Below, in pieces: positions 4,227 through 17,831 of a stretch of DNA of 36,480 bases (positions are counted from its first letter, which is position 1; each line of letters opens with the position of its first letter). The notes under the pieces are model-generated. The model did no database searches. It had not been told where the DNA came from and saw nothing but the letters and a program-made list of their open reading frames with translations. The stretch is from the IMG/VR virus record IMGVR_UViG_2526164599_000008; one strand, given 5' to 3'. Both the position numbers and the translations under genes were made by a program. Source of the DNA: a virus (taxonomy: Duplodnaviria > Heunggongvirae > Uroviricota > Caudoviricetes).

Positions 4227-4323
4227 AATTTAATTCTCCTCTGTTTCCGGCGTGCAGAAGCCCACGGCGCTGACGCCGGAATAAAAAAGAAAATGTTTTT
4301 ATTAAATAATTAACGTGGTGTGT

Positions 4324-4854
4324 TTACTGCACATCCTGCTCAAAAGGAATTATTGAAAAATCCTCAATATCACTTTTTATGGTAATACCGGGAATATTTT
4401 TCACGGCGTCCTTTTCATTCAGGATAGCGTCTTTATTTATTTCCTCCTTTACACGGATAAAGCGCTCAAGCCCCAGACGTCTCAGTAATTCAATAACATT
4501 ATCCGCCCCACGGATACTGACTGATGGCGGACGGTTTCGCCACTGCACCTCGCCGGTGGTGAGGTTAGCGAACTTCACCTTCCCGTTGCCGGTCAGTTCA
4601 TCACGGTGTGCCTCACACCATGTCTGAATACCGGACTGCAGTTCGGCCATGCGTTTTTTCAGGCTCTCGGTGAGCGGGGCATAACGTGCGGTGATATCGC
4701 CAATGGCGTCATTCATTTCTGTTTCAGCCCTGACCAGTTCACGGTGTGCGTCACCGAGCAGTCTGATGCCCTCAATGACCTCTTCACGTGTCCCCGGCAC
4801 CCAGAGTGCTGCTGCGGCCTTGATACGTTTTGCACCTTTTGTACTTTTTGCCAT
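4324..4854 (-). CDS. gam: Gam-like host-nuclease inhibitor (Mu Gam family)
   Basis: 176 aa, Mu Gam-like length. Position just downstream of the transposition genes. Overall resemblance to Gam family proteins from memory. Confidence 0.6.
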   Translation of the reverse strand: MAKSTKGAKRIKAAAALWVPGTREEVIEGIRLLGDAHRELVRAETEMNDAIGDITARYAPLTESLKKRMAELQSGIQTWCEAHRDELTGNGKVKFANLTTGEVQWRNRPPSVSIRGADNVIELLRRLGLERFIRVKEEINKDAILNEKDAVKNIPGITIKSDIEDFSIIPFEQDVQ

Positions 4855-4881
4855 TTTTTATGATTTCTCCGGTTGTGCTGA

Positions 4882-5151
4882 TTACCACAAAGATTCCGGC
4901 CACACGACGCGACAGCCGTGCAGTTCGAAAACGCCCTGACGGAAATATCCCCTGTGGTCATGTCCGGTATACAGATAACAGGCCTTTCCCTGCTCAAGCA
5001 TGCGCATGCAATGCGCACTCCGGGAAACGCGGATGACAGGTTTGTTCCCCCTGATGGTGATGCTTTGTACATCCGTGTTCGTCGCCTTAAGCGCCATAAT
5101 GGCTGACTGCACTTTGCTGATTTGCTGGTTGATACCTGTGGTGGATTTCAT
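4882..5151 (-). CDS. Hypothetical early protein
   Basis: 89-aa ORF immediately downstream of the ATPase gene. No recognisable motif. Confidence 0.4.
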   Translation of the reverse strand: MKSTTGINQQISKVQSAIMALKATNTDVQSITIRGNKPVIRVSRSAHCMRMLEQGKACYLYTGHDHRGYFRQGVFELHGCRVVWPESLW

Positions 5152-5153
5152 TA

Positions 5154-6320
5154 TTAAACCCCTTTGACAACGTCAGCGTTGACCTGTGGAACCCCGATTT
5201 CAGCAGCCAGATTCATGGCGGCTATTACCAGGTTACTGACGGCCAGCGGATACAGCAGGCTGACCATATTTTTACGATGACTTCCCGGATTGCTCAGGCG
5301 GGCACGTATGGCATCCACTGCGCTGGCGTCCATAATGTCCGTCAGTTGTTTACCGGCCCGTTGCAGTTTGAACGTCAGAAATTCTTCAAGGTTATTGTCC
5401 AGAGGCAGAAGTTCGACCACCTCACAGCGCTGAACGACTTCACGGACTTCCATATTGCGTTCAGACAGTTTTGTCGCCAGTTCCGGCTGACCAATTAGCA
5501 CGATGGACAGCAGTTTTTTGAAACCGGACTCCAGCTCAAAAAAGCGTTTGAGGTGTTTCAGTGTCGGAATGGGCAGACTGTGGGCCTCCTCAATCACCAG
5601 AACGTGGCTGAACCCCGCCTGGCTGCTGTCTTTCAGGACGCGATGCAACTGGCGAAAGCGGGCGTCCTGACTGCGTCTGATGCTTTCCAGTGGTGCGATG
5701 GTACTGATAATGGCTTCGGCAATCGCTGCTGCCTTCAGAGTTTTCCCTTTCACATCGTTGTCTTCCATAGCGATGATGTATGGCTCGATAACAATCACTG
5801 GCGCATTCTCGCGGTTGATACGTTCAGTCAGGTCACGGCGCAGCGTGGATTTACCCGCACCGGACTCACCGATGACGGCCATAAACCCACCATGACGTGC
5901 TGTCTGGTACAACGCCTCACGCACGTAGCGAATGTCCGGGGTGGTGAACACATCATCAGAACCCTGCATGGCTTCGTCGGCGAACGGGTCACGGAAAAGA
6001 CCAAACGCTTTTTTGGTTGCTGGAAATAACACCTGTTTTTTGAGTAACATATTCTCTTCCTCACTGAGGCTCGTTTTATCTGTGGTACCCGATGTACGGG
6101 GCGTGGCCGCGCCCTGTACAGCATCAAAACTCTTCGCTGTATCAATCCCCTGACTTTCCAGCCAGGACGCAAGACGCCGGCGCACTTCTCCGGGGCTGGT
6201 GCGGGGCCACGCGTTATGATTCACAATCTGGGCCAGCGTGGCCTCAGAAACATCGACAGCTCTCGCCACCACCGCCTGTGAAATACGGGCCTCTTTCAGT
6301 TGCTGCTTCAGTACCAGCAT
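5154..6320 (-). CDS. Transposition ATPase (TnpB / Mu B-like AAA+ protein)
   Basis: Walker A GESGAGKST and Walker B-like VLVIEEAH. N-terminal HTH-like region. Track ORF starts at a GTG (6359), but the internal ATG at 6320 has GAGGAGG 5 nt upstream and lies just after the transposase stop. Confidence 0.75.
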   Translation of the reverse strand: MLVLKQQLKEARISQAVVARAVDVSEATLAQIVNHNAWPRTSPGEVRRRLASWLESQGIDTAKSFDAVQGAATPRTSGTTDKTSLSEEENMLLKKQVLFPATKKAFGLFRDPFADEAMQGSDDVFTTPDIRYVREALYQTARHGGFMAVIGESGAGKSTLRRDLTERINRENAPVIVIEPYIIAMEDNDVKGKTLKAAAIAEAIISTIAPLESIRRSQDARFRQLHRVLKDSSQAGFSHVLVIEEAHSLPIPTLKHLKRFFELESGFKKLLSIVLIGQPELATKLSERNMEVREVVQRCEVVELLPLDNNLEEFLTFKLQRAGKQLTDIMDASAVDAIRARLSNPGSHRKNMVSLLYPLAVSNLVIAAMNLAAEIGVPQVNADVVKGV

Positions 6321-6330
6321 GTTTTCCTCC

Positions 6331-10121: not shown

Positions 10122-11129
10122 ATGTCTGAGCAGACCATTGAAGTTAAACACGTTGTAGTTCACATTTTAGACAAACAACAAAATGGAGACGCTTCTGAGA
10201 GATTGAGTCCTGAAGAAGGTCTAGTTACTGAAGCCTCCCAGCGCCTTATAAACGATATTTGTGCAAAATATGCAGGACGCACAGGTAAAGGTTATGGCTA
10301 TTTTGAAGGCGATACGGATAACTATCCTATGGAACGAATGGCTGGGGACTTTCTCGAAGGTGTTGATGATTTCTACCAAAGTTCCTGCCGAATGATGCAT
10401 CACCTGACGGAACGTTCTCAGCGAGAAAACATGGCTACTGGTGGTTATGTTCTTTTTGCAAATATCGTGATAGGACACAATGAACACCTGTTGATAGCTA
10501 TTGTAAGCGCTACCATTGGATCCACTGTCACAGATGATTTTAACATCCAAGATAGTACCTATCTTGATATTGCTAAGCTGCGTATGGCTGGGCGCATTGA
10601 CTTAACCGCGTGGGAAAGTGGCGCAGAGCGCTATATCAGTTTTCTTAAGGGGCAAGGTAATGTTTCAAACTATTTTAAACAGTTCCTCGGCTGTAATGAT
10701 GTCTTAATCGCCAAACGAGAGTCTGAAAAGTTACGTGACGTTTTAAAAGCATTTGCGGCAGAGAAAGGACTTGACGGCGCTGAAAAAGATGCATTTCTTA
10801 AGAGTGCGTTTGAACACTTACATGCACTAAGTAAGGCTGGTGAACCACTTAGTCTTGAAACCCTTGTTAATGCCATTTGGCCCCAGGCTCCCGAGGAGTT
10901 ATCTGGTAAACTTGCTGCTGAAGAGTTGGAGTTATCGGATGGCTTCGTTCCTGATGGTCGAGTCATTCGGGCTCTGGTATCTTTTAAAGGCAAGTCTAAA
11001 TATTGGGAACTTAAGTTTGACCGGGAAGGGAAAACTGAAGGCTATATTGATTATGATCCGGAAACAAATATTATCACCCTACGTAATGTACCTGAAGAAT
11101 TTAGGGAAATGTGGATGACTGAGGTTTAA
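10122..11129 (+). CDS. NdpA/YejK-like nucleoid-associated protein homologue (cargo gene)
   Basis: 335 aa, the same length as E. coli YejK. Blocks GGYVLF, LLIAIVS, YLDIAKL, RIDLTAWESGAERYISFLKG, FKQFLG align by eye with YejK blocks as I remember them. AT-richer than the flanking phage genes. Confidence 0.5.
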   Translation: MSEQTIEVKHVVVHILDKQQNGDASERLSPEEGLVTEASQRLINDICAKYAGRTGKGYGYFEGDTDNYPMERMAGDFLEGVDDFYQSSCRMMHHLTERSQRENMATGGYVLFANIVIGHNEHLLIAIVSATIGSTVTDDFNIQDSTYLDIAKLRMAGRIDLTAWESGAERYISFLKGQGNVSNYFKQFLGCNDVLIAKRESEKLRDVLKAFAAEKGLDGAEKDAFLKSAFEHLHALSKAGEPLSLETLVNAIWPQAPEELSGKLAAEELELSDGFVPDGRVIRALVSFKGKSKYWELKFDREGKTEGYIDYDPETNIITLRNVPEEFREMWMTEV

Positions 11130-11131
11130 TC

Positions 11132-12337
11132 GTGGCGATTTCATTTGAGATGCTGACAGATCTGTATCGTCGTATGGAATTCCAAGAGGGGTTTCGTGTC
11201 GGTTCGCTGTTGCTCTTAGATCAGTCCGATTGTGATCTGGTTGATACTTTGCTTGATGATCCTCGTGAATATGGTCTTTCTATTGATACAGGCACTATCG
11301 CTCCAGGTAACACGATCATCCTACGTGTGACGTCACCACGGAGTGGACTGGGACTTGTGTTTTCCACCCATGAAAAATTGCTAAATGCTCCAAAGCATCA
11401 GTGCCTTGAGCCAGCTAATTACTTCATCCTAGAAACAAAGTTTCGTAATGATGATGAAGATATCCCCGTTTTCATCAGCAACTACCGGAAGATTCTCGAG
11501 TTCGTTAACCTGCTAAAAGAGGCCGCGGCCTACTTTGATAACTCAACTTGTCAGTTAGTTTTTCTGAAAAAAGAAGTTATCAAGCTATTACCGCACTTCG
11601 CTGCAGAAAATGTACAAAATTTGCAAAGAGAGTATCTTGATAACCTTATAGCTTGTTTCAATGATGATACCCATAAGGATCAGAAGCTAGATATTCTGAT
11701 TGAAAGTATCCAAGCAGTTAGTGATGGAATTGATTCACCTCTAGTATTCGCTTATTTACTGGACAATATTCAGCGTCTGCATGAAAAGTTTCTGAAAGGG
11801 TATCGTATCTACTCTTCTGGATTCTCTTATGACAAAGTAATGGATCAACTGCGTGCTGCAAAAGTCGAAGAAATGGGTAAAATCCACAAAGCGTTTTCAG
11901 ATATCCAGAACCATATACTTGGCATTCCTGTTGCCTCTGTTATCGTAGCTACCCAATTCAAAGTGGCTACGAAATGGTCAGGCCAAGGGATAACAAACAC
12001 AATAATTCTTCTGGGATGCATTTTTGCTGCAACGTTAATCTGGCTGGCACTTTCGAACCAGATGCAATCTATAAAGGCCTTAGGCGAAGAAATTGAATAC
12101 AAAGAAAAACAGATTAATAAGGAATATTCCTTCATTAAAGATGACGTGGCTGGTGTATTTAGCAGTATTTCTGCGCGACTAGACACGCAGAAACGTACGT
12201 TCTGGATTATACGTGGTGTTCTAGTTATGGGAATTATTACCGCTATCACTGTTTATTTTTGGTACACAAAACCAGCCCTTGACTTCATGCAGTACTTGAT
12301 TCACTGCATGAAGTCTTACTATTCGGTCAAAAGTTGA
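11132..12337 (+). CDS. Unknown protein with two C-terminal transmembrane helices, operonic with the NdpA-like gene
   Basis: 401 aa. GTG start 2 nt after the upstream stop with GAGG upstream. N-terminal soluble region of about 285 aa has no motif I recognise. Hydrophobic helices ITNTIILLGCIFAATLIWLALS and FWIIRGVLVMGIITAITVYFWY. Confidence 0.55.
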   Translation: MAISFEMLTDLYRRMEFQEGFRVGSLLLLDQSDCDLVDTLLDDPREYGLSIDTGTIAPGNTIILRVTSPRSGLGLVFSTHEKLLNAPKHQCLEPANYFILETKFRNDDEDIPVFISNYRKILEFVNLLKEAAAYFDNSTCQLVFLKKEVIKLLPHFAAENVQNLQREYLDNLIACFNDDTHKDQKLDILIESIQAVSDGIDSPLVFAYLLDNIQRLHEKFLKGYRIYSSGFSYDKVMDQLRAAKVEEMGKIHKAFSDIQNHILGIPVASVIVATQFKVATKWSGQGITNTIILLGCIFAATLIWLALSNQMQSIKALGEEIEYKEKQINKEYSFIKDDVAGVFSSISARLDTQKRTFWIIRGVLVMGIITAITVYFWYTKPALDFMQYLIHCMKSYYSVKS

Positions 12338-13097
12338 GGATAATGAGTTCCTTCTTGCGACTGGATTTGCCAGTGATCTTGAGGTTGTAGCTGATATCAA
12401 CCGACTGAATATTTAGACCGTTGAATGCCTGCCGCATTTCCGGGATATCGTTCACCGATATAATCATCTTCCCTTTGATCCTGCGTGCTAAATCTGCCAT
12501 ATGATCATAATTTTCTAGTCCGAACTCCACACCATAACCTTCCGTTCCCCAGTATGGAGGGTCACAGTAGAACAACGTATGCGGGCGATCATATCGTTCT
12601 ATGCACTGTTGCCAGTCCATGTGTTCTATGACCGTTCTGGAAAGCCGCAGGTGTGCCGCTGACAGTTCTTCTTCAATACGCAGCAGGTTGAAGCGTGGCG
12701 GGGATATGGTGGAGGTACCAAAGCTGTGCTCCGCCACCTTGCCTCCAAACGCCTGCTTCTGAAGGTAGTAGAACCGTGCTGCACGCTGGATATCCGTCAG
12801 TGTTTCTTCCGGGGTGATCTGCAGCCATTTGTAGATCTGCCGGCTGACCAGCGCCCATTTGAACTGGCGTACAAATTCTTCCAGATGATGTTTTACCACC
12901 CGATACAGGTTCACCAGTTCACCGTTGATATCATTAATGACTTCGATCTTGCCGGGTACCTTAAGAAAATAGAGCGCTGCTGCCCCACAAAACGGCTCCA
13001 CATAACATTCATGCGCCGGAAACAGCGGCAGGATGTGTTTTGCAAGGCGGCGTTTGCCACCAATCCATGGAACGATGGGTAATGTCTGCATTTTCAT
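12327..13097 (-). CDS. DNA N6-adenine methyltransferase, Dam-like
   Basis: 256 aa. AdoMet motif VEPFCGAAALYF and catalytic DPPY. Opening PWIGGKRRL matches the Dam family. Convergent with, and overlapping by 11 nt, the membrane-protein gene. Confidence 0.8.
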   Translation of the reverse strand: MKMQTLPIVPWIGGKRRLAKHILPLFPAHECYVEPFCGAAALYFLKVPGKIEVINDINGELVNLYRVVKHHLEEFVRQFKWALVSRQIYKWLQITPEETLTDIQRAARFYYLQKQAFGGKVAEHSFGTSTISPPRFNLLRIEEELSAAHLRLSRTVIEHMDWQQCIERYDRPHTLFYCDPPYWGTEGYGVEFGLENYDHMADLARRIKGKMIISVNDIPEMRQAFNGLNIQSVDISYNLKITGKSSRKKELIILNF

Positions 13098-13344
13098 AAT
13101 CTGTAAGCCTTTTACAATTATAAAAAATATGGCAGGCTAGTCTGGTCTCGCGAGACTGACTGAACCTCGGTCGGCTCACAGCGCATTCCTGTGGGGCGAT
13201 GGCCAGCCCGGTGTTCGGGTACCGGGCTGGTCGTTCTTTCAAAGTCATCATGCAGTGCACGTTTACATCTTCACTATTAACGCTGTTTAAAATCCGTATC
13301 CCGCCACATTTGTGATGCTGTCTCCACCAAACGAGGAGACACAC
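13098..13344. promoter_or_regulatory. Intergenic region upstream of the lysis/late operon; candidate late promoter
   Basis: About 250 bp non-coding. Contains the 12-bp palindrome GTCTCGCGAGAC and the stem-loop CCAGCCCGGT...ACCGGGCTGG. AGGAG Shine-Dalgarno before the ATG at 13345. Confidence 0.4.
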
Positions 13345-13695
13345 ATGAAAAACCTGAAAAAATTCATTCCCCCTGTTAAAAAACCTCGCCTCAGCGGCTG
13401 GCTGCTGACCTCAGTGCTGTTGCTGGGCATCATCGCTCTGGTCTCGCCACAGCAGTTGCCTGTTGTGATCTACAAGCTGGCACTTATCACGCTGGCAGCA
13501 GTGCTGGGTTACTGGCTTGACCGTTCGCTCTTCCCCAAAGCCCGTCCCGGTCAGTACCTGAAACATGACGACAGGCTGATGGCTGAAGGGCGTTTCCCGG
13601 TACAGACCGGCCTTCACCTGGTGTTTTCTGCTGCGTTAATCCGCCGTGCACTGATTGTTGCAGCGGTCTGCCTGGCTGTGGCAACAGGACTGTGA
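13345..13695 (+). CDS. Holin-like small membrane protein
   Basis: Track ORF 13312..13695 trimmed to the ATG at 13345. About 116 aa with two or three hydrophobic helices. Sits immediately upstream of the endolysin. Confidence 0.45.
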   Translation: MKNLKKFIPPVKKPRLSGWLLTSVLLLGIIALVSPQQLPVVIYKLALITLAAVLGYWLDRSLFPKARPGQYLKHDDRLMAEGRFPVQTGLHLVFSAALIRRALIVAAVCLAVATGL

Positions 13696-14426
13696 CCATG
13701 AACTGGCCTCAAATCACCCTCATTATTCTGTTCGCCTTTGGTCTGGGCGTAACCGCCATCAGACACGGAGAACCACGTAACGATAAATACAGCTTCTGGT
13801 GGCAGCTTGCTGGCAACCTGGTGATTGTCTGGCTGCTCTGGTGTGGCGGCTTTTTCAGCCAGGCATGCGCAGCGCAGCCCCCGCAGGCTGCGCTGCAGTA
13901 TCGCGATGATGTGATCCGTAATGCCCGGCTTGAATGGGGACTGTCTGCGCCGGTGGCCGATTTCGCCGCGCAACTGCATCAGGAAAGCGGCTGGCGACCT
14001 GATGCGATCTCGCCGGCTGGCGCTCAGGGACTGGCGCAGTTCATGCCTGCCACTGCCGACTGGATAAGCCAGTTGATACCGATGCTGAGCAGTCGTGAGC
14101 CGTTTAATCCGGCATGGGCTATCCGGGCGCTGGTCAGCTATGACCGCTGGCTGTGGCAGCGTGTCAGCGCCGCCAGTGACTGCGAGCGTATGGCCATGAC
14201 ACTGTCGGGCTATAACGGTGGTCTGGGCTGGGTACAACGGGACAGGCGGCTTGCATCACAGAAAGGTCTGGACAGCACCCGCTGGTTCGGACATGTCGCC
14301 ACGGTGAATGCCGGACGCAATGCGGCCAGCTGGCGGGAGAACCGCCATTATCCGCAGCGCATCCTGCGCGAACTGGCACCGCGATATCTCACATGGGGAG
14401 GCAGCAGTTGTGCGGCATCTGGTTAA
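13692..14426 (+). CDS. Endolysin, lytic transglycosylase (SLT domain), possibly signal-anchor-release type
   Basis: SLT signature ESGWRPDAISPAGAQGLAQFMPATA. Hydrophobic N-terminus ITLIILFAFGLGVTAI. Overlaps the upstream stop. Confidence 0.75.
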   Translation: MTMNWPQITLIILFAFGLGVTAIRHGEPRNDKYSFWWQLAGNLVIVWLLWCGGFFSQACAAQPPQAALQYRDDVIRNARLEWGLSAPVADFAAQLHQESGWRPDAISPAGAQGLAQFMPATADWISQLIPMLSSREPFNPAWAIRALVSYDRWLWQRVSAASDCERMAMTLSGYNGGLGWVQRDRRLASQKGLDSTRWFGHVATVNAGRNAASWRENRHYPQRILRELAPRYLTWGGSSCAASG

Positions 14427-15060
14427 AAAGCTGCCGTGGCGCGGCATTCTGCTGGCCATTCTTATCAATGCCTTTCTGGTCGGCCTGTATGCCATGGGAT
14501 ACAGAAGTGGTCATGACTCTGCAAAGCGTGACGGTGATACCGCGCTCAGTCAGTTGCAGTCAGCATTTGACGCGTACAAAACGGAGCAGGCAACGCTTGA
14601 GAATGCTGCGCTGCGGGCCTGGGCCAGACGGTATCAGGAGCAGGTGGCCGCCGGGCAGCGGGCTGAAGCCGGTTATCTTGAGCAGATTGCTCAACTGGAG
14701 AGCCGGAACAAACAACTACAGGGGCAAATTAACGATGTCACACAGCGCTGGATTGATGAAAAAGGTAAGAGCCATCCCATTGAGTGCGTGTTTACTCGCG
14801 GTTTCGTGCGCCAGTACAACGCCGCACTCGGATATGACAACGCATCCGTCGACACCGGTCATTCAGACTCAGTTGCCGCCGCTGGCACCCGCTCTGGCAC
14901 AGCGACCGGGCAACCTGAAACCACTGACACCCGGTTACGCGATTCGGGTGTCTCCCAGCGTGACGTTCTCGCCAACATCATCGACAACGCAGGACAATGT
15001 CGTCGCTGGCGGAACCAGATAAACGCGTTACTGGATGAACGGGAAGGATTACAGAAATGA
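14410..15060 (+). CDS. i-spanin (Rz-like)
   Basis: Track ORF 14308..15060 trimmed to a GTG at 14410 preceded by GGGGAGG. N-terminal TM helix ILLAILINAFLVGLYAM followed by a coiled-coil-like region. Immediately follows the endolysin. Confidence 0.6.
   Translation: MRHLVKKLPWRGILLAILINAFLVGLYAMGYRSGHDSAKRDGDTALSQLQSAFDAYKTEQATLENAALRAWARRYQEQVAAGQRAEAGYLEQIAQLESRNKQLQGQINDVTQRWIDEKGKSHPIECVFTRGFVRQYNAALGYDNASVDTGHSDSVAAAGTRSGTATGQPETTDTRLRDSGVSQRDVLANIIDNAGQCRRWRNQINALLDEREGLQK
14756..15022 (+). CDS. o-spanin (Rz1-like lipoprotein) embedded in the +1 frame of the i-spanin gene
   Basis: Internal ATG of track ORF 14393..15022. MKKVRAIPLSACLLAVSCAS carries a lipobox (AVSC). Pro-rich mature part. 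Wholly contained in the i-spanin gene. Confidence 0.6.
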   Translation: MKKVRAIPLSACLLAVSCASTTPHSDMTTHPSTPVIQTQLPPLAPALAQRPGNLKPLTPGYAIRVSPSVTFSPTSSTTQDNVVAGGTR

Positions 15061-15383
15061 CACTGCAGGTTGAATTCTGGACGGTGGTGAGTTTTCTGCT
15101 CACCTTCATGGGGTTTGTGGGAGGGCTCGCCAAATGGTTGTTCAGTAAAACAGAAGAACGCCAGGCGGCACGATTCGCCTCCCTTGAACAGGCCCTGCAA
15201 CAGTCCGCCTCCAACTGGGGCGAGCTGGAAAAAGAATTTATGCGATTTAAAGCGGATTTACCGCTGAATTATGTCCGTCGCGAGGATTATATCCGTGGCC
15301 AGACAGTCATCGAGGCCAAACTGGACGCGCTTTATAACAAACTGGAAGTGGTACAGCAGTACCGCAATACCGGAGGTCAATAA
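15057..15383 (+). CDS. Hypothetical membrane-anchored protein
   Basis: 108 aa with N-terminal TM helix and coiled coil. Overlaps the upstream stop. Confidence 0.45.
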   Translation: MTLQVEFWTVVSFLLTFMGFVGGLAKWLFSKTEERQAARFASLEQALQQSASNWGELEKEFMRFKADLPLNYVRREDYIRGQTVIEAKLDALYNKLEVVQQYRNTGGQ

Positions 15384-15694
15384 TGGTCGATATTACCCGG
15401 GTACGCCGCGAATCCCTGCGCTGGAGTTTGCTGGTTGCCCTGAACAAAACCCGCCCTTACACCGCCAGTGAAACGTTGCTGCTGGACGTGTCCCGCGCCA
15501 TCTACCCGGACACCACACCGCTGGAACTGCGCCGCGAACTGGATTATCTGGCTGACCGTAAAATGGTTGAGCTGGAGAAAAAACCTTCTGGCGACTGGTT
15601 TGCTGACCTGACCCGCCTCGGCGTAGACCTGGTGGAATACACCGTGGAATGTGGTCCGGGTATTGCCCGCCCGGAAAAGTACTGGAGTGAATAA
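15383..15694 (+). CDS. Hypothetical late protein
   Basis: 103-aa ORF, coupled to its neighbours, upstream of the terminase genes. Confidence 0.45.
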   Translation: MVDITRVRRESLRWSLLVALNKTRPYTASETLLLDVSRAIYPDTTPLELRRELDYLADRKMVELEKKPSGDWFADLTRLGVDLVEYTVECGPGIARPEKYWSE

Positions 15695-16239
15695 TGGCCA
15701 GACGCAGCACAATAGAAAAGCTGCCGGAAGACGTGCGCCGCTGGCTTGAACGGGCGCTGACTGAATCCGGCTTCAGCGGGTATAACGAGCTGGAGTCCCT
15801 GCTGCGTGAGCGGGGGTACGTCATCAGCAAATCCGCTATCCATCGCTATGGACAGAAGATTGAGCGCCGCTATGGTGCTATCCGTGCGGCAACAGAAGCG
15901 GCCCGCATGCTGACCGAAGGCGCAGCAGACGATCAGGATGCGCGTTCGGAGGCTGTGATAGCCCTTATTCAGACCGAGCTGTTCGAGAGTATTGTCCAGT
16001 TGCAGGAGGCGGAAGAAGGTGAAGTCGATCCTAAAGAACGCGTGGCCCTGCTGTCGAAGGTGGCGAAGAATGTGGCTACGCTGTCCCGCGCGTCCGTCAA
16101 CCTCAAAAAGTTCCAGTCTGAAGTACGGGCCAGAGCGCAGCAGGCAGCCAGCAACGCCGAGAAAATTGCCCGTAAGGGGGGACTGTCAAGCGACGCAGTA
16201 CAGGCGCTTCGTCGCGAGATTCTGGGGATTGCCACATGA
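15694..16239 (+). CDS. Terminase small subunit (Mu gp27-like)
   Basis: 181 aa, directly upstream of the large terminase. Basic N-terminal region, helical. Confidence 0.5.
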   Translation: MARRSTIEKLPEDVRRWLERALTESGFSGYNELESLLRERGYVISKSAIHRYGQKIERRYGAIRAATEAARMLTEGAADDQDARSEAVIALIQTELFESIVQLQEAEEGEVDPKERVALLSKVAKNVATLSRASVNLKKFQSEVRARAQQAASNAEKIARKGGLSSDAVQALRREILGIAT

Positions 16240-17831
16240 CAAAATCATCCGGAGTGATTTTAAACGCCGCTGGCGGCGGCCCCGAAGGGATGAGTCCCAT
16301 GGACGGGAGGAATAACCTTGCTCCCGTTTTGCCTGATACCTCGGCGCTGGATGCCCCTCCCGTTCTGTTGCCTTACCAGCAGCGCTGGGTGGCAGACACC
16401 TCTCCGCTTAAGGTGATAGAAAAGAGCCGTCGTACCGGTATTACATGGGCTGAGGCATCCGATAACGTACTGACCGCCGCCTCTTCTGCGCCAGCAGGCG
16501 GGATGAATGTGTATTACATCGCTTATAACCAGGACATGACCGTCGAATACATTCAGGCGTGTGCGATGTGGGCACGGGCATTCAACTATGCGGCCAGTGA
16601 AATTGAAGAAGGATTCTGGGAAGAGGACGACGACGACAAACACATCAGGACTTACACCATCAAATTTCCTGACTCCGGCTTTCGTATTGTTGCGCTCTCC
16701 AGCCGCCCGTCTAACCTGCGTGGCCGTCAGGGTATTATTGTTATCGACGAAGCGGCGTTCCATGAGCAACTGGACGAACTGCTGAAAGCGGCGCTGGCGA
16801 TGCTTATCTGGGGGGGAAAGGTACGCGTTATCTCCACCCATAACGGTGACGACAATCCGTTCAATACGCTTATCGGGGATATCCGTGCCGGACGTCAGGG
16901 AGGCAGCATACATCGCATCACTTTCCGGGAAGCCGTATCTGAGGGGCTGTTCCGGCGCGTCTGTCTGCGCACCGGGAAGGAATGGTCGGAGGCATCCGAG
17001 CAGGCCTGGATGGCATCGGTGTACAAATTCTACGGTGCCGGCGCATCCGAAGAGCTTGACTGTATTCCGGCCAACGGTGGCGGTGCCTGGCTGTCCCGTG
17101 CCCTGATAGAGTCCCGCATGTCCGCTGATACGCCGGTATTGCGTCTGACCTGCAAGGAAGGTTATGAACTGCTGTCTGATGAGGTTCGCTTCCGCGAGAC
17201 GCAGGACTGGCTTGATGAGTATCTGAAACCCTTGCTGGAGGCACTCCCCACTGATGCCCGCTCTTTCCTGGGGCGCGACTTTGGCCGTAGCGGTGATTTG
17301 TCGGTGGACTATCCCCTGCTGCAGGAGAAGAACCTGGTACGACGCGTGCCATTCGTACTGGAGCTGCGTAACGTGCCGTTCAGACAGCAGGAGCAAATCA
17401 CCTGGTATCTGATGGATGGCCTGCCCGGTCTGCTGGGTGCAGCGTTTGATGCCCGTGGTAATGGTGCCTATCTGGCTGAATACGCCATGCAGCGCTACGG
17501 CTCCAGCCGGGTTCAGCAGGTGATGCCAACCGAAGGCTGGTACCGGGAGCATATGCCTCCGGTCAAAGCTGCACTGGAAGACGGTAACCTGGTGGACTTA
17601 CCAAAGGATGAAGACACACTGGATGACCTGCGGGCCGTTCAGGTGGTGAACGGTGTCCCCCGCGTACCGGAGCAACGCTCAAAAGCAAAGGCTGACGGTG
17701 GTAAACGCCACGGGGATTCAGCCATCGCACTGGCGCTGGCGTATTTCGCCAGCCGTGAAATTAACAAAGGGCCGGTGAAGGCAAGCTCACGCCGTCGTCG
17801 TCAGGCGGCCCGTATGCTGGAGGGATTCTGA
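16236..17831 (+). CDS. Terminase large subunit (Mu gp28-like)
   Basis: 531 aa. Position between the small terminase and portal. Acidic patch EEDDDDKH. Size typical of large terminases. Confidence 0.7.
   Translation: MTKSSGVILNAAGGGPEGMSPMDGRNNLAPVLPDTSALDAPPVLLPYQQRWVADTSPLKVIEKSRRTGITWAEASDNVLTAASSAPAGGMNVYYIAYNQDMTVEYIQACAMWARAFNYAASEIEEGFWEEDDDDKHIRTYTIKFPDSGFRIVALSSRPSNLRGRQGIIVIDEAAFHEQLDELLKAALAMLIWGGKVRVISTHNGDDNPFNTLIGDIRAGRQGGSIHRITFREAVSEGLFRRVCLRTGKEWSEASEQAWMASVYKFYGAGASEELDCIPANGGGAWLSRALIESRMSADTPVLRLTCKEGYELLSDEVRFRETQDWLDEYLKPLLEALPTDARSFLGRDFGRSGDLSVDYPLLQEKNLVRRVPFVLELRNVPFRQQEQITWYLMDGLPGLLGAAFDARGNGAYLAEYAMQRYGSSRVQQVMPTEGWYREHMPPVKAALEDGNLVDLPKDEDTLDDLRAVQVVNGVPRVPEQRSKAKADGGKRHGDSAIALALAYFASREINKGPVKASSRRRRQAARMLEGF

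Follow-up and report, generated by a model that had tools for sequence, protein, structure and literature searches.

Lysis module of a BcepMu-like Escherichia coli prophage and the putative two-helix export signal of its transglycosylase endolysin

The virus record IMGVR_UViG_2526164599_000008 of IMG/VR (Caudoviricetes) is a stretch of 36,480 nucleotides, referred to here as the window, and it carries a late-operon lysis module that belongs to a transposable, BcepMu-like prophage of Escherichia coli. The module encodes a candidate holin, an endolysin with an SLT transglycosylase domain, an i-spanin whose gene contains that of the o-spanin, and a membrane protein of 108 residues (p108). The endolysin has a hydrophobic N-terminus of two predicted helices and, to judge from the signals carried by its relatives, is very probably exported rather than cytoplasmic, but it probably does not belong to the classical signal-anchor-release (SAR) endolysins. 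The best explanation, for which the evidence is evenly balanced, is Sec-dependent export through the two-helix hairpin followed by cleavage by signal peptidase, with lysis triggered by the holin and involving the spanins, and with p108 as an accessory protein.

Hydropathy analysis places two hydrophobic segments at the endolysin N-terminus, transmembrane domain 1 (TMD1, ITLIILFAFGLGVTAI) and TMD2 (FWWQLAGNLVIVWLLWCGGFF), whose positions are given in Table 1; the hydropathy scales, and the lipobox pattern applied to the o-spanin, follow published values. The positive charges of this hairpin lie in the loop between the segments (R22, R27 and K30), with none in the five-residue N-terminal tail and none in the 15 residues following TMD2. 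By the positive-inside rule the loop charges therefore predict a topology with the N-terminus out, the loop in and the C-terminus out, which would place the SLT domain in the periplasm. Full-length homologues across the Enterobacterales, at 64-97% identity, keep the N-terminal region, and its 58 codons have dN/dS values of 0.05-0.29, like those of the catalytic domain, indicating purifying selection; for these two reasons the region is considered to be truly translated. A downstream start codon was rejected on the same dN/dS values and on the absence of any Met before residue 116. These observations also bear on whether the protein is a canonical cytoplasmic endolysin that exits through holin holes only, its hydrophobic N-terminus being incidental or mis-annotated. 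The holin gene directly upstream is what such a system would have, but the reading appears highly improbable in view of the purifying selection, the lack of an alternative Met, the family-wide occurrence of export signals described below, and the expectation that a protein with two TMDs would insert in the membrane and not stay soluble. Cleavage of TMD1 as a signal peptide at VTA↓I (arrows mark predicted cuts) was likewise rejected: the motif is not conserved, the loop charges are predicted to be cytoplasmic, and the SLT domain would stay in the cytoplasm, unlike that of every relative with a simple signal.

A sequence-only reading of the window had described an SLT signature and had suggested that the endolysin is secreted rather than cytoplasmic, and both features are borne out, the second of them by prediction. 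The PF01464 match scores 53.8 bits against a gathering cut-off of 21.3. Glu478 is the catalytic residue of E. coli Slt70; the endolysin motif QESGW aligns with QESAW of Slt70 (477-481), which pairs Glu96 (codon 13983-13985) with Glu478, and the motifs GLAQFMP and GYNGG lie downstream. Glu96 is invariant among the endolysin homologues and is the predicted catalytic residue. A 2026 bioRxiv paper on the endolysin of a phage of uropathogenic E. coli was set aside as not relevant, being concerned with an unrelated Drexlerviridae muramidase.

Export signals are a general feature of the family to which this enzyme belongs, which was sampled as 80 related loci, one genome per species, together with 149 cluster representatives. 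Four types of N-terminus precede the SLT domain. The two-helix module is found in Enterobacterales, Pandoraea and Collimonas, and short classical signal peptides occur in BcepMu (MRVLIAFVVALLGAAAPVAA↓QVP), Pectobacterium (MRHLLITLL..ACA↓DT) and Paraburkholderia (..AFA↓QVP). In Photorhabdus the module has collapsed to a plain signal peptide (MNWRQIIGIVLLWCGGMVSPALA↓DEPP), and other members, for example from Desulfovibrio (..IVSGC), carry a lipobox. By a rough rule-based count, about 200 of the 211 family sequences with complete N-termini carry an export signal that ends in either a small-x-small site or a lipobox. The predicted cut sites of unlike signals (BcepMu VAA↓Q, Photorhabdus ALA↓D, Pectobacterium ACA↓D, B3 AKA↓D and JBD25 AFA↓T) all lie 9-11 residues before the conserved Tyr-Arg of the catalytic domain, and because this spacing is kept in all signal types the family as a whole looks like one of secreted, processed enzymes. 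A perfect lipobox was observed in some SLT endolysins of the family, among them JBD25 gp26 (LLSAC; retrieved locus L094, 3398-4027), the Desulfovibrio protein (IVSGC; L076), one from an Elusimicrobiales metagenome-assembled genome (L080) and several cluster representatives, and these enzymes may be anchored as lipoproteins.

In the window endolysin, the sequence directly after TMD2 follows the pattern S-Q-A-x-A↓A-(Q/E)-P-P. Among 127 distinct homologues the -3 position is Ala in 118 (93%) and the -1 position is Ala in 124 (98%), with eleven different residues accepted at -2. The pattern obeys the -3/-1 rule that is classical for sites of signal peptidase I, and the position is accordingly listed in Table 1 as a putative cleavage site.

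The sequence-only reading had also proposed that the endolysin might be of the SAR type; the exported, hydrophobic N-terminus of that proposal stands, and the SAR label itself probably does not hold. A SAR endolysin has a single N-terminal TMD in the N-in/C-out orientation, whereas two segments are present here, the exporting helix is internal and the N-terminal tail has no positive charge. SAR domains are rich in Gly, Ala, Ser and Thr; the fraction of these residues is 0.38 in TMD1 and 0.19 in TMD2, compared with 0.56 in the experimentally proven SAR domain of Mu gp22, and both endolysin helices are rich in Leu, Ile, Trp and Phe. SAR domains also lack a signal-peptidase site, and here the departure is seen through a sequence proxy, namely the conserved A-x-A at a fixed distance from the catalytic domain. 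The classical SAR systems (P1 Lyz, phage 21 R21; pinholins) likewise show holin-independent Sec export with a holin gene alongside, but P1 Lyz and R21 have a single, uncleaved N-terminal helix rich in Gly, Ala, Ser and Thr, unlike the two helices, low content of these residues and A-x-A site of the window endolysin. A thiol switch of the P1 Lyz kind acting through Cys49 of TMD2 was rejected, the homologues having Ser, Ala, Trp or Tyr at that position.

The hairpin belongs to a protein family in its own right. Residues 1-54 of the endolysin match the whole 53-position profile of phrog_5479 (E 4e-15), and stand-alone module proteins of 52-60 aa are encoded by Xanthomonas phages FoX1-5, M29 and Murka, by Burkholderia phages Mica and BcepB1A and by one Rhizobium phage, as well as in about 90 metagenomic clusters. 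The module proteins share the motifs MxxPQI, GxG, KHGxP and LLWxGGFF, and the stand-alone forms end at GGFF(G/SQP), which is exactly where the A-x-A of the fused form starts. The strength of this motif conservation marks the module as more than a generic signal. Two Pseudomonas phages illustrate how it can be joined to the enzyme. In JBD25 (JX495042, gp24-gp29) a separate 52-aa module gene, gp25 (L094, 3243-3401; hhalign probability 98.8% to the module profile), lies between the holin and SLT genes, and the SLT protein carries a signal of its own (MKRLLTLGLLGLLSAC..AFA↓TD). In B3 (AF232233, ORF24-28) ORF25 (L095, 896-1690) joins module and SLT domain in a single reading frame through ..GGFFSSAKA↓DEIP. 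The holins of the two phages are 93% identical and their SLT domains 96%, the latter sharing 59-60% identity with the SLT domain of the window. B3 thus has the architecture of the window, with a hairpin-SLT fusion through A-x-A followed by Rz and a homologue of p108, whereas JBD25 differs in its separate hairpin gene, in the signal of its SLT protein and in having a Pfam DUF2730 protein in place of p108; both differ from the window in an extra 70-aa open reading frame (ORF) between the SLT and Rz genes. The module is also optional, since BcepMu and many Pectobacterium and Brenneria cassettes are without it, and its role is therefore suggested to be accessory or regulatory rather than essential. 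Further sites of the phrog_5479 family were noted among the retrieved loci at L085 2501-2671 and L086 2495-2665.

The preferred explanation, export followed by cleavage, can be set out as a series of steps. The holin would build up in the inner membrane, and the hairpin would insert with its N-terminus out and its basic loop in, so that TMD2 could act as an internal export signal and direct the SLT domain through the Sec pathway into the periplasm. Host signal peptidase I would then cut after Ala58 at Ala-x-Ala, a step that, taken by itself, has an even or slightly better chance of being correct. The cut would leave the hairpin behind in the membrane as a peptide of about 58 residues and would free the SLT enzyme, 184 residues long and soluble, into the periplasm. 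The main reason for preferring cleavage is that a fused gene with a signal-peptidase cut would yield the same two products that JBD25 makes from split genes. The periplasmic enzyme would be harmless until the holin triggers and the membrane potential collapses, after which the murein would be degraded; the Rz/Rz1-type spanin complex, released from the murein mesh, would disrupt the outer membrane. By analogy with the releasin of phage Mu, p108 may modulate the endolysin or the holin from the cytoplasmic face. Lys44 of Oenococcus phage fOg44 offers a partial parallel, with a cleavable Sec signal, secretion before lysis and a holin that serves as trigger and not as exit route; the window differs in its Gram-negative host and in the extra conserved transmembrane helix, from an autonomous protein family, that precedes the signal. 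Lys44 was discussed by the authors of the KS10 study, who predicted a cut at 44↓45 of a lysin like BcepMu gp22 and noted that this prediction was untested (PMC2628397).

Several observations weigh against export with cleavage. Both the cleavage and the topology rest on rules and conservation, and no experimental studies of export in BcepMu-type SLT endolysins were found in the literature. Signal peptides have been predicted in error for SAR endolysins in the past, and the opposite error has occurred as well; T4 RI, long taken as a SAR protein, proved to be cleaved (PMC8385771), and sequence alone therefore cannot settle the choice between SAR and cleaved forms. Moreover, the SLT endolysins of JBD25-type Pseudomonas phages were classed as SAR by Chamblee et al. 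(PMC9239132). The segment at 33-53, with its 21 residues, is long enough for an uncleaved anchor. An AlphaFold2 model of the full-length endolysin from a 16-sequence alignment, of low confidence (mean pLDDT 52), has helices at 3-21 and 33-49 and coil at 50-62. Conservation of MxWPQI and LLWCGGFF goes well beyond what an ordinary signal peptide would require, and the hairpin therefore has some further function; the stand-alone module genes of the Xanthomonas and Burkholderia phages and of Xanthomonas prophages lie in early or replication regions and not in lysis cassettes. Finally, a free and active SLT enzyme in the periplasm would need to be restrained before triggering, which export with cleavage leaves without explanation.

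If the hairpin is not cleaved, it may serve as a permanent anchor, a stable two-TMD structure from which the SLT domain works while tethered, as bacterial membrane-bound lytic transglycosylases and the lipobox carriers of the family do, with the holin only as trigger. Anchored forms do exist in the family, some members of which carry lipoprotein signals or 2-3 TMDs, and TMD1 (mean Kyte-Doolittle hydropathy 2.54) would make a good stable TMD. Nevertheless, the conserved A-x-A favours cleavage, the many soluble-type signal peptides of close relatives (BcepMu, Pectobacterium and Photorhabdus) show that anchoring is unnecessary for function, and a tethered enzyme would reach the murein layer poorly, so that permanent anchoring is considered distinctly unlikely.

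The second component of interest is p108, which occupies the slot of a releasin. The gene is the second after the endolysin, and its ATG overlaps the stop codon of the i-spanin (ATGA). A single TMD at residues 7-25, an acidic or uncharged N-terminal tail without Lys or Arg and four Lys/Arg residues after the TMD predict an N-out/C-in topology, and the helical domain, predicted to be cytoplasmic, contains the conserved motif ADLPLxYVRREDYIRGQTVIEAKLDA. The protein is 41.5% identical to its B3 homologue (ORF28). Mu gp25 has been named 'releasin' and is needed to free the SAR endolysin of Mu, gp22, which acts with the spanins gp23/gp23.1 (Chamblee et al. 2022; PMC9239132). The slot of p108, whose gene is followed by genes like gp26 and gp27 of Mu, is that of Mu gp25 and of JBD25 gp29, both PF10805 (DUF2730) proteins, and in size, topology and position p108 resembles a releasin. 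Mu is likewise a transposable phage in which an exported endolysin is followed by a two-component spanin and a membrane protein of about 100 aa, N-out/C-in, encoded directly upstream of the gp26 and gp27 homologues; it differs in having no holin, in its muramidase with a single Gly/Ala-rich SAR helix and in an o-spanin gene that overlaps that of the i-spanin and is not embedded in it.

Homology of p108 to the DUF2730 proteins is not claimed. BLASTP gave no alignment of p108 with Mu gp25, and a scan of 22 members of the p108 family with PF10805 gave no match even at E values up to 10. The two proteins fall in different PHROGs (phrog_462 for p108, phrog_736 for Mu gp25); hhalign of p108 against the Mu gp25 family gave a probability of 26% (E 7e-4, collinear over 96 columns) and against JBD25 gp29 one of 0.7%. 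Four tail-only elements, from Lelliottia, Phytobacter, Superficieibacter and Dryocola, are informative about the company that p108 keeps. These headless, tailocin-like elements (retrieved loci L070 1979-6125, L071, L073 and L077) have genes in the order repressor, Holin_2-3 protein, SLT protein with a signal peptide, p108 homologue, tail terminator (Gp37) and tail sheath; the SLT gene and that of p108 have no spanin gene between them, and neither gp26, gp27 nor a terminase gene comes after p108. As p108 is kept beside the holin and SLT genes in such elements, it therefore travels with the lysis genes and not with the packaging genes. It is regarded as a positional and topological analogue of releasin and a candidate lysis accessory, and is not called a releasin.

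This releasin-like protein gives some weight to a SAR-like, releasin-dependent tether, in which an uncleaved hairpin would hold the exported SLT enzyme in an inactive state until depolarisation, with p108 helping as gp25 does in Mu. It amounts to the sequence-only reading fitted to two helices. Such a tether would account for the harmlessness of the enzyme before triggering, and agrees with the exported SLT domain, the holin gene directly upstream, the co-travelling of p108 with holin and SLT and the SAR classification of the related Pseudomonas endolysins. In addition, TMD2 is moderately hydrophobic, with a mean Kyte-Doolittle value of 1.38 over 21 residues that is close to the 1.31 of the Mu gp22 SAR domain, and it contains Gln, Asn, Gly-Gly and Cys. 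However, spontaneous exit of a whole hairpin is hard to envisage when it has two helices of which TMD1 is so strongly hydrophobic, and the low Gly/Ala/Ser/Thr fraction of TMD2 is far from that of a proven SAR domain. The conserved A-x-A with its variable -2 residue, the short classical signal peptides or lipoboxes that relatives have at the same position, the split genes of JBD25, which show that hairpin and SLT need not share one polypeptide in order to work, and the lack of a detectable DUF2730 signature in p108 also speak against it, and the tether appears rather unlikely. A broader proposal extends export with cleavage to the origin of both proteins: the endolysin gene would be a natural fusion of two genes of the lysis cassette, for a phrog_5479 membrane protein and a secreted SLT enzyme, whose product the host cuts at the signal-peptidase site, and p108 would represent a second, non-DUF2730 releasin-like lineage. 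This is put forward tentatively, its chance of being right lying somewhat below even.

The remaining parts of the module conform to known lysis systems. The sequence-only reading had identified a cassette of holin, endolysin and embedded two-component spanin at 13345-15060, and the ORF map and sequence place all four genes there on the + strand; the module itself extends further, the p108 gene having been left out of that interval. Two nucleotides separate the holin stop from the endolysin ATG, the GTG start of the i-spanin overlaps the 3' end of the endolysin gene by 17 nt, and the genes at 15383-15694 and 15694-16239, which are translationally coupled to the cassette, mark its downstream end. 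Burkholderia phage BcepMu has the same order with every gene homologous, gp21-gp25 followed by gp26 and the small terminase (TerS) gp27, and identities for gp21 to gp27 are 52% (gp21 'holin'), 61% (gp22, over endolysin residues 65-234), 32% (gp23 Rz), 39% (gp24), 52% (gp25), 57% and 67%. BcepMu differs in its betaproteobacterial host and in gp22, which has a short classical signal peptide instead of the two-helix hairpin. Its GenBank record (AY539836) annotates a holin, an SLT protein, Rz and 'Rz1, out of frame, embedded proline-rich protein'. The BcepMu lysis type was reportedly described in 2004 by Summer and co-workers in J Mol Biol (340:49). Hundreds of E. coli genomes have it annotated, and the present cassette, which belongs to that kind, is ordinary as a lysis cassette. 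Assignment to the BcepMu-like transposable phages follows from these collinear late-gene homologues, the gp27-type protein among them, and from the hallmark genes of transposable phages on the opposite strand upstream, namely GemA, Gam, a MuB-like AAA ATPase and an rve transposase. Chromosomes of E. coli contain the 2.3-kb region at 100% identity, and 638 of 5426 complete genomes of the species have it; among phage records the region is 98% identical to PhiKM, 89% to KP12 and 85% to Phi06_2974 B. A scan of 13000-16300 for promoters and terminators found them no more often than in shuffled sequences.

The holin candidate is small, has at least two TMDs, matches the Holin_2-3 profile and adjoins the endolysin gene. 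Its N-terminal tail is basic, with six Lys/Arg in 15 residues, which predicts an N-in orientation, and hydropathy shows three peaks, two of them TMDs (residues 16-34 and 40-58, approximately) and the third a hydrophobic helix at the C-terminus (about 92-116). The hole-forming role presumed for it is taken from annotation, and no experimental work on the Holin_2-3 (PF13272) family was found in the literature. A strong Shine-Dalgarno sequence, GAGGAG, lies upstream of the ATG at 13345; an in-frame ATG at 13315 was rejected as start because it has no Shine-Dalgarno sequence and because the GAGGAG serving 13345 would lie inside the gene. A PADLOC scan of the holin and p108 gave no matches. Upstream of the holin, the intergenic region holds an extra gene in some otherwise near-identical prophages: a DUF2441 protein gene in three E. 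coli strains (for example ATCC 43896; retrieved locus L096, 449-1024) and a gene for a 188-aa hypothetical protein in phage KP12 (L002, 1127-1693). This region seems to be an insertion hotspot for morons.

The spanin genes were described in the sequence-only reading as an i-spanin with a Pro-rich o-spanin lipoprotein (lipobox AVSC) wholly embedded in its +1 frame, and both the arrangement and the lipoprotein signal have held up. The i-spanin is preceded by the Shine-Dalgarno sequence GGGGAGG and has an N-terminal tail with four Lys/Arg, a TMD at residues 12-30 (14443-14499) in the N-in orientation and a periplasmic helical domain; it is 33% identical to the Rz protein of B3. The o-spanin signal is MKKVRAIPLSACLLAVSC, and the protein starts MKKVRAIPLSACLLAVS-C, with the lipobox LAVS-Cys (Cys codon 14807-14809), the Cys at position 18 and Ala at +2, which fits the PROSITE PS51257-type lipobox pattern. 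Of its two possible starts, ATG 14735 is preceded by the better Shine-Dalgarno sequence (AGGGG, at a distance of 10 nt) and gives an N-terminal extension that is kept in relatives, and both starts give the identical mature lipoprotein of 71 aa with 11 Pro. The i-spanin gene stays open in its +1 frame for 203 codons, a length that only 9 of 5000 codon-order shuffles attained. Nearly all of the 80 related loci with an intact i-spanin have an embedded +1 ORF with a lipobox (LL[VA][AV]SC) and the motif LPPLPxALAxRPxxLxPLTPGY; the embedding is almost always complete and holds down to about 33-40% i-spanin identity, including BcepMu gp24. A chance origin of the ORF was rejected on the shuffles and on this conservation. 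The pair presumably acts in the disruption of the outer membrane, as a predicted Rz/Rz1-type complex. Lambda Rz/Rz1 likewise has an o-spanin gene wholly inside the i-spanin gene in the +1 frame, an i-spanin with an N-terminal TMD and a Pro-rich o-spanin, but there is no detectable sequence similarity (the PHROGs differ), the window spanins are longer (216 aa, and 71 aa mature) and, compared with lambda Rz1, the mature o-spanin of the window has no cysteine beyond the lipidated one. In many homologues another Cys follows close to the N-terminus (CSxTTPPSxC), and the i-spanin has two Cys. In the Mixta mediterraneensis locus (L009, about 4285-6327) the match to the i-spanin breaks off at residue 191 and the homologue of p108 is displaced downstream by about 2 kb relative to other loci, which suggests an insertion inside the spanin genes. 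RefSeq annotates the window locus with a 'putative holin', a 'transglycosylase SLT domain-containing protein' and a 'lysis system spanin subunit', the last a name given by PGAP; the embedded o-spanin is missing there, which is a point for annotation.

Table 1. Features of the lysis module and its downstream neighbours, in window coordinates
Feature	Coordinates	Strand	Basis or remark
Holin candidate, 116 aa	ATG 13345 to TGA 13695	+	PF13272 Holin_2-3, E 4.7e-41; phrog_1528 'holin', E 2.9e-54
Endolysin, 242 aa	ATG 13698 to TAA 14426	+	PF01464 SLT, E 1.7e-14; phrog_669 'endolysin', E 2.3e-70
Hairpin module, endolysin residues 1-56	13698-13865	+	phrog_5479 family; motifs MxWPQI, LLWCGGFF
TMD1, endolysin residues 6-21	13713-13760	+	Hydropathy
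Basic loop, endolysin residues 22-32		+	Between TMD1 and TMD2
TMD2, endolysin residues 33-53	13794-13856	+	Hydropathy
Ala56-Cys57-Ala58, putative signal peptidase I site; predicted cut between Ala58 (ends 13871) and Ala59	13863-13871	+	-3/-1 conservation
SLT catalytic domain, endolysin residues 93-189	13974-14264	+	Pfam match
i-spanin (Rz-like), 216 aa	GTG 14410 to TGA 15060	+	phrog_1403 'Rz-like spanin', E 1.3e-91
o-spanin (Rz1-like) lipoprotein	ATG 14735 or ATG 14756 to 15022	+	Wholly inside i-spanin gene, +1 frame
p108, 108-aa membrane protein	15057-15383	+	ATG overlaps i-spanin stop; phrog_462
Mu gp26-like protein	15383-15694	+	phrog_436, shared with Mu gp26
Mu gp27-type small terminase	15694-16239	+	PF11985 Phage_Mu_Gp27, E 1.3e-56

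Elsewhere in the window, the sequence begins (1-1317, + strand) inside a gene for a fusion of PAP2 and dual-specificity phosphatase, presumably chromosomal DNA of the host next to the prophage; phage-like genes begin with GemA near 1.9 kb. The stretch from the repressor to the late operon includes two genes that resemble cargo (10122-12337, + strand). One encodes a homologue of the 37-kDa nucleoid-associated protein (PF04245, E 1e-80), and the other a protein of 401 aa with no Pfam match, residues 262-394 of which weakly match KwaA from the Kiwa defence system (E 8e-5); together they may represent a moron or defence locus. Immediately upstream of the lysis operon, on the - strand (12327-13097), is a gene for a D12-class (Dam-like) N6-adenine DNA methyltransferase, for which the nearest model in PADLOC is that of a type II methyltransferase; a partner nuclease was not seen.

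The lysis module thus belongs to a common E. coli prophage family, which provides a tractable host for the problem of distinguishing SAR domains from cleavable signals, with an endolysin N-terminus that fits neither textbook class. After the work on Mu, the p108 family draws attention to the possible role of releasin-like proteins outside DUF2730, as it shares the releasin slot and stays with holin and SLT even in headless elements. The split arrangement of hairpin and SLT in JBD25 and the fused arrangement in B3 and E. coli amount to a natural experiment on the role of the hairpin. If the endolysin gene is indeed such a fusion, export of the enzyme, and possibly its timing, would depend neither on a SAR domain nor on a plain signal peptide, and would not be holin-dependent.

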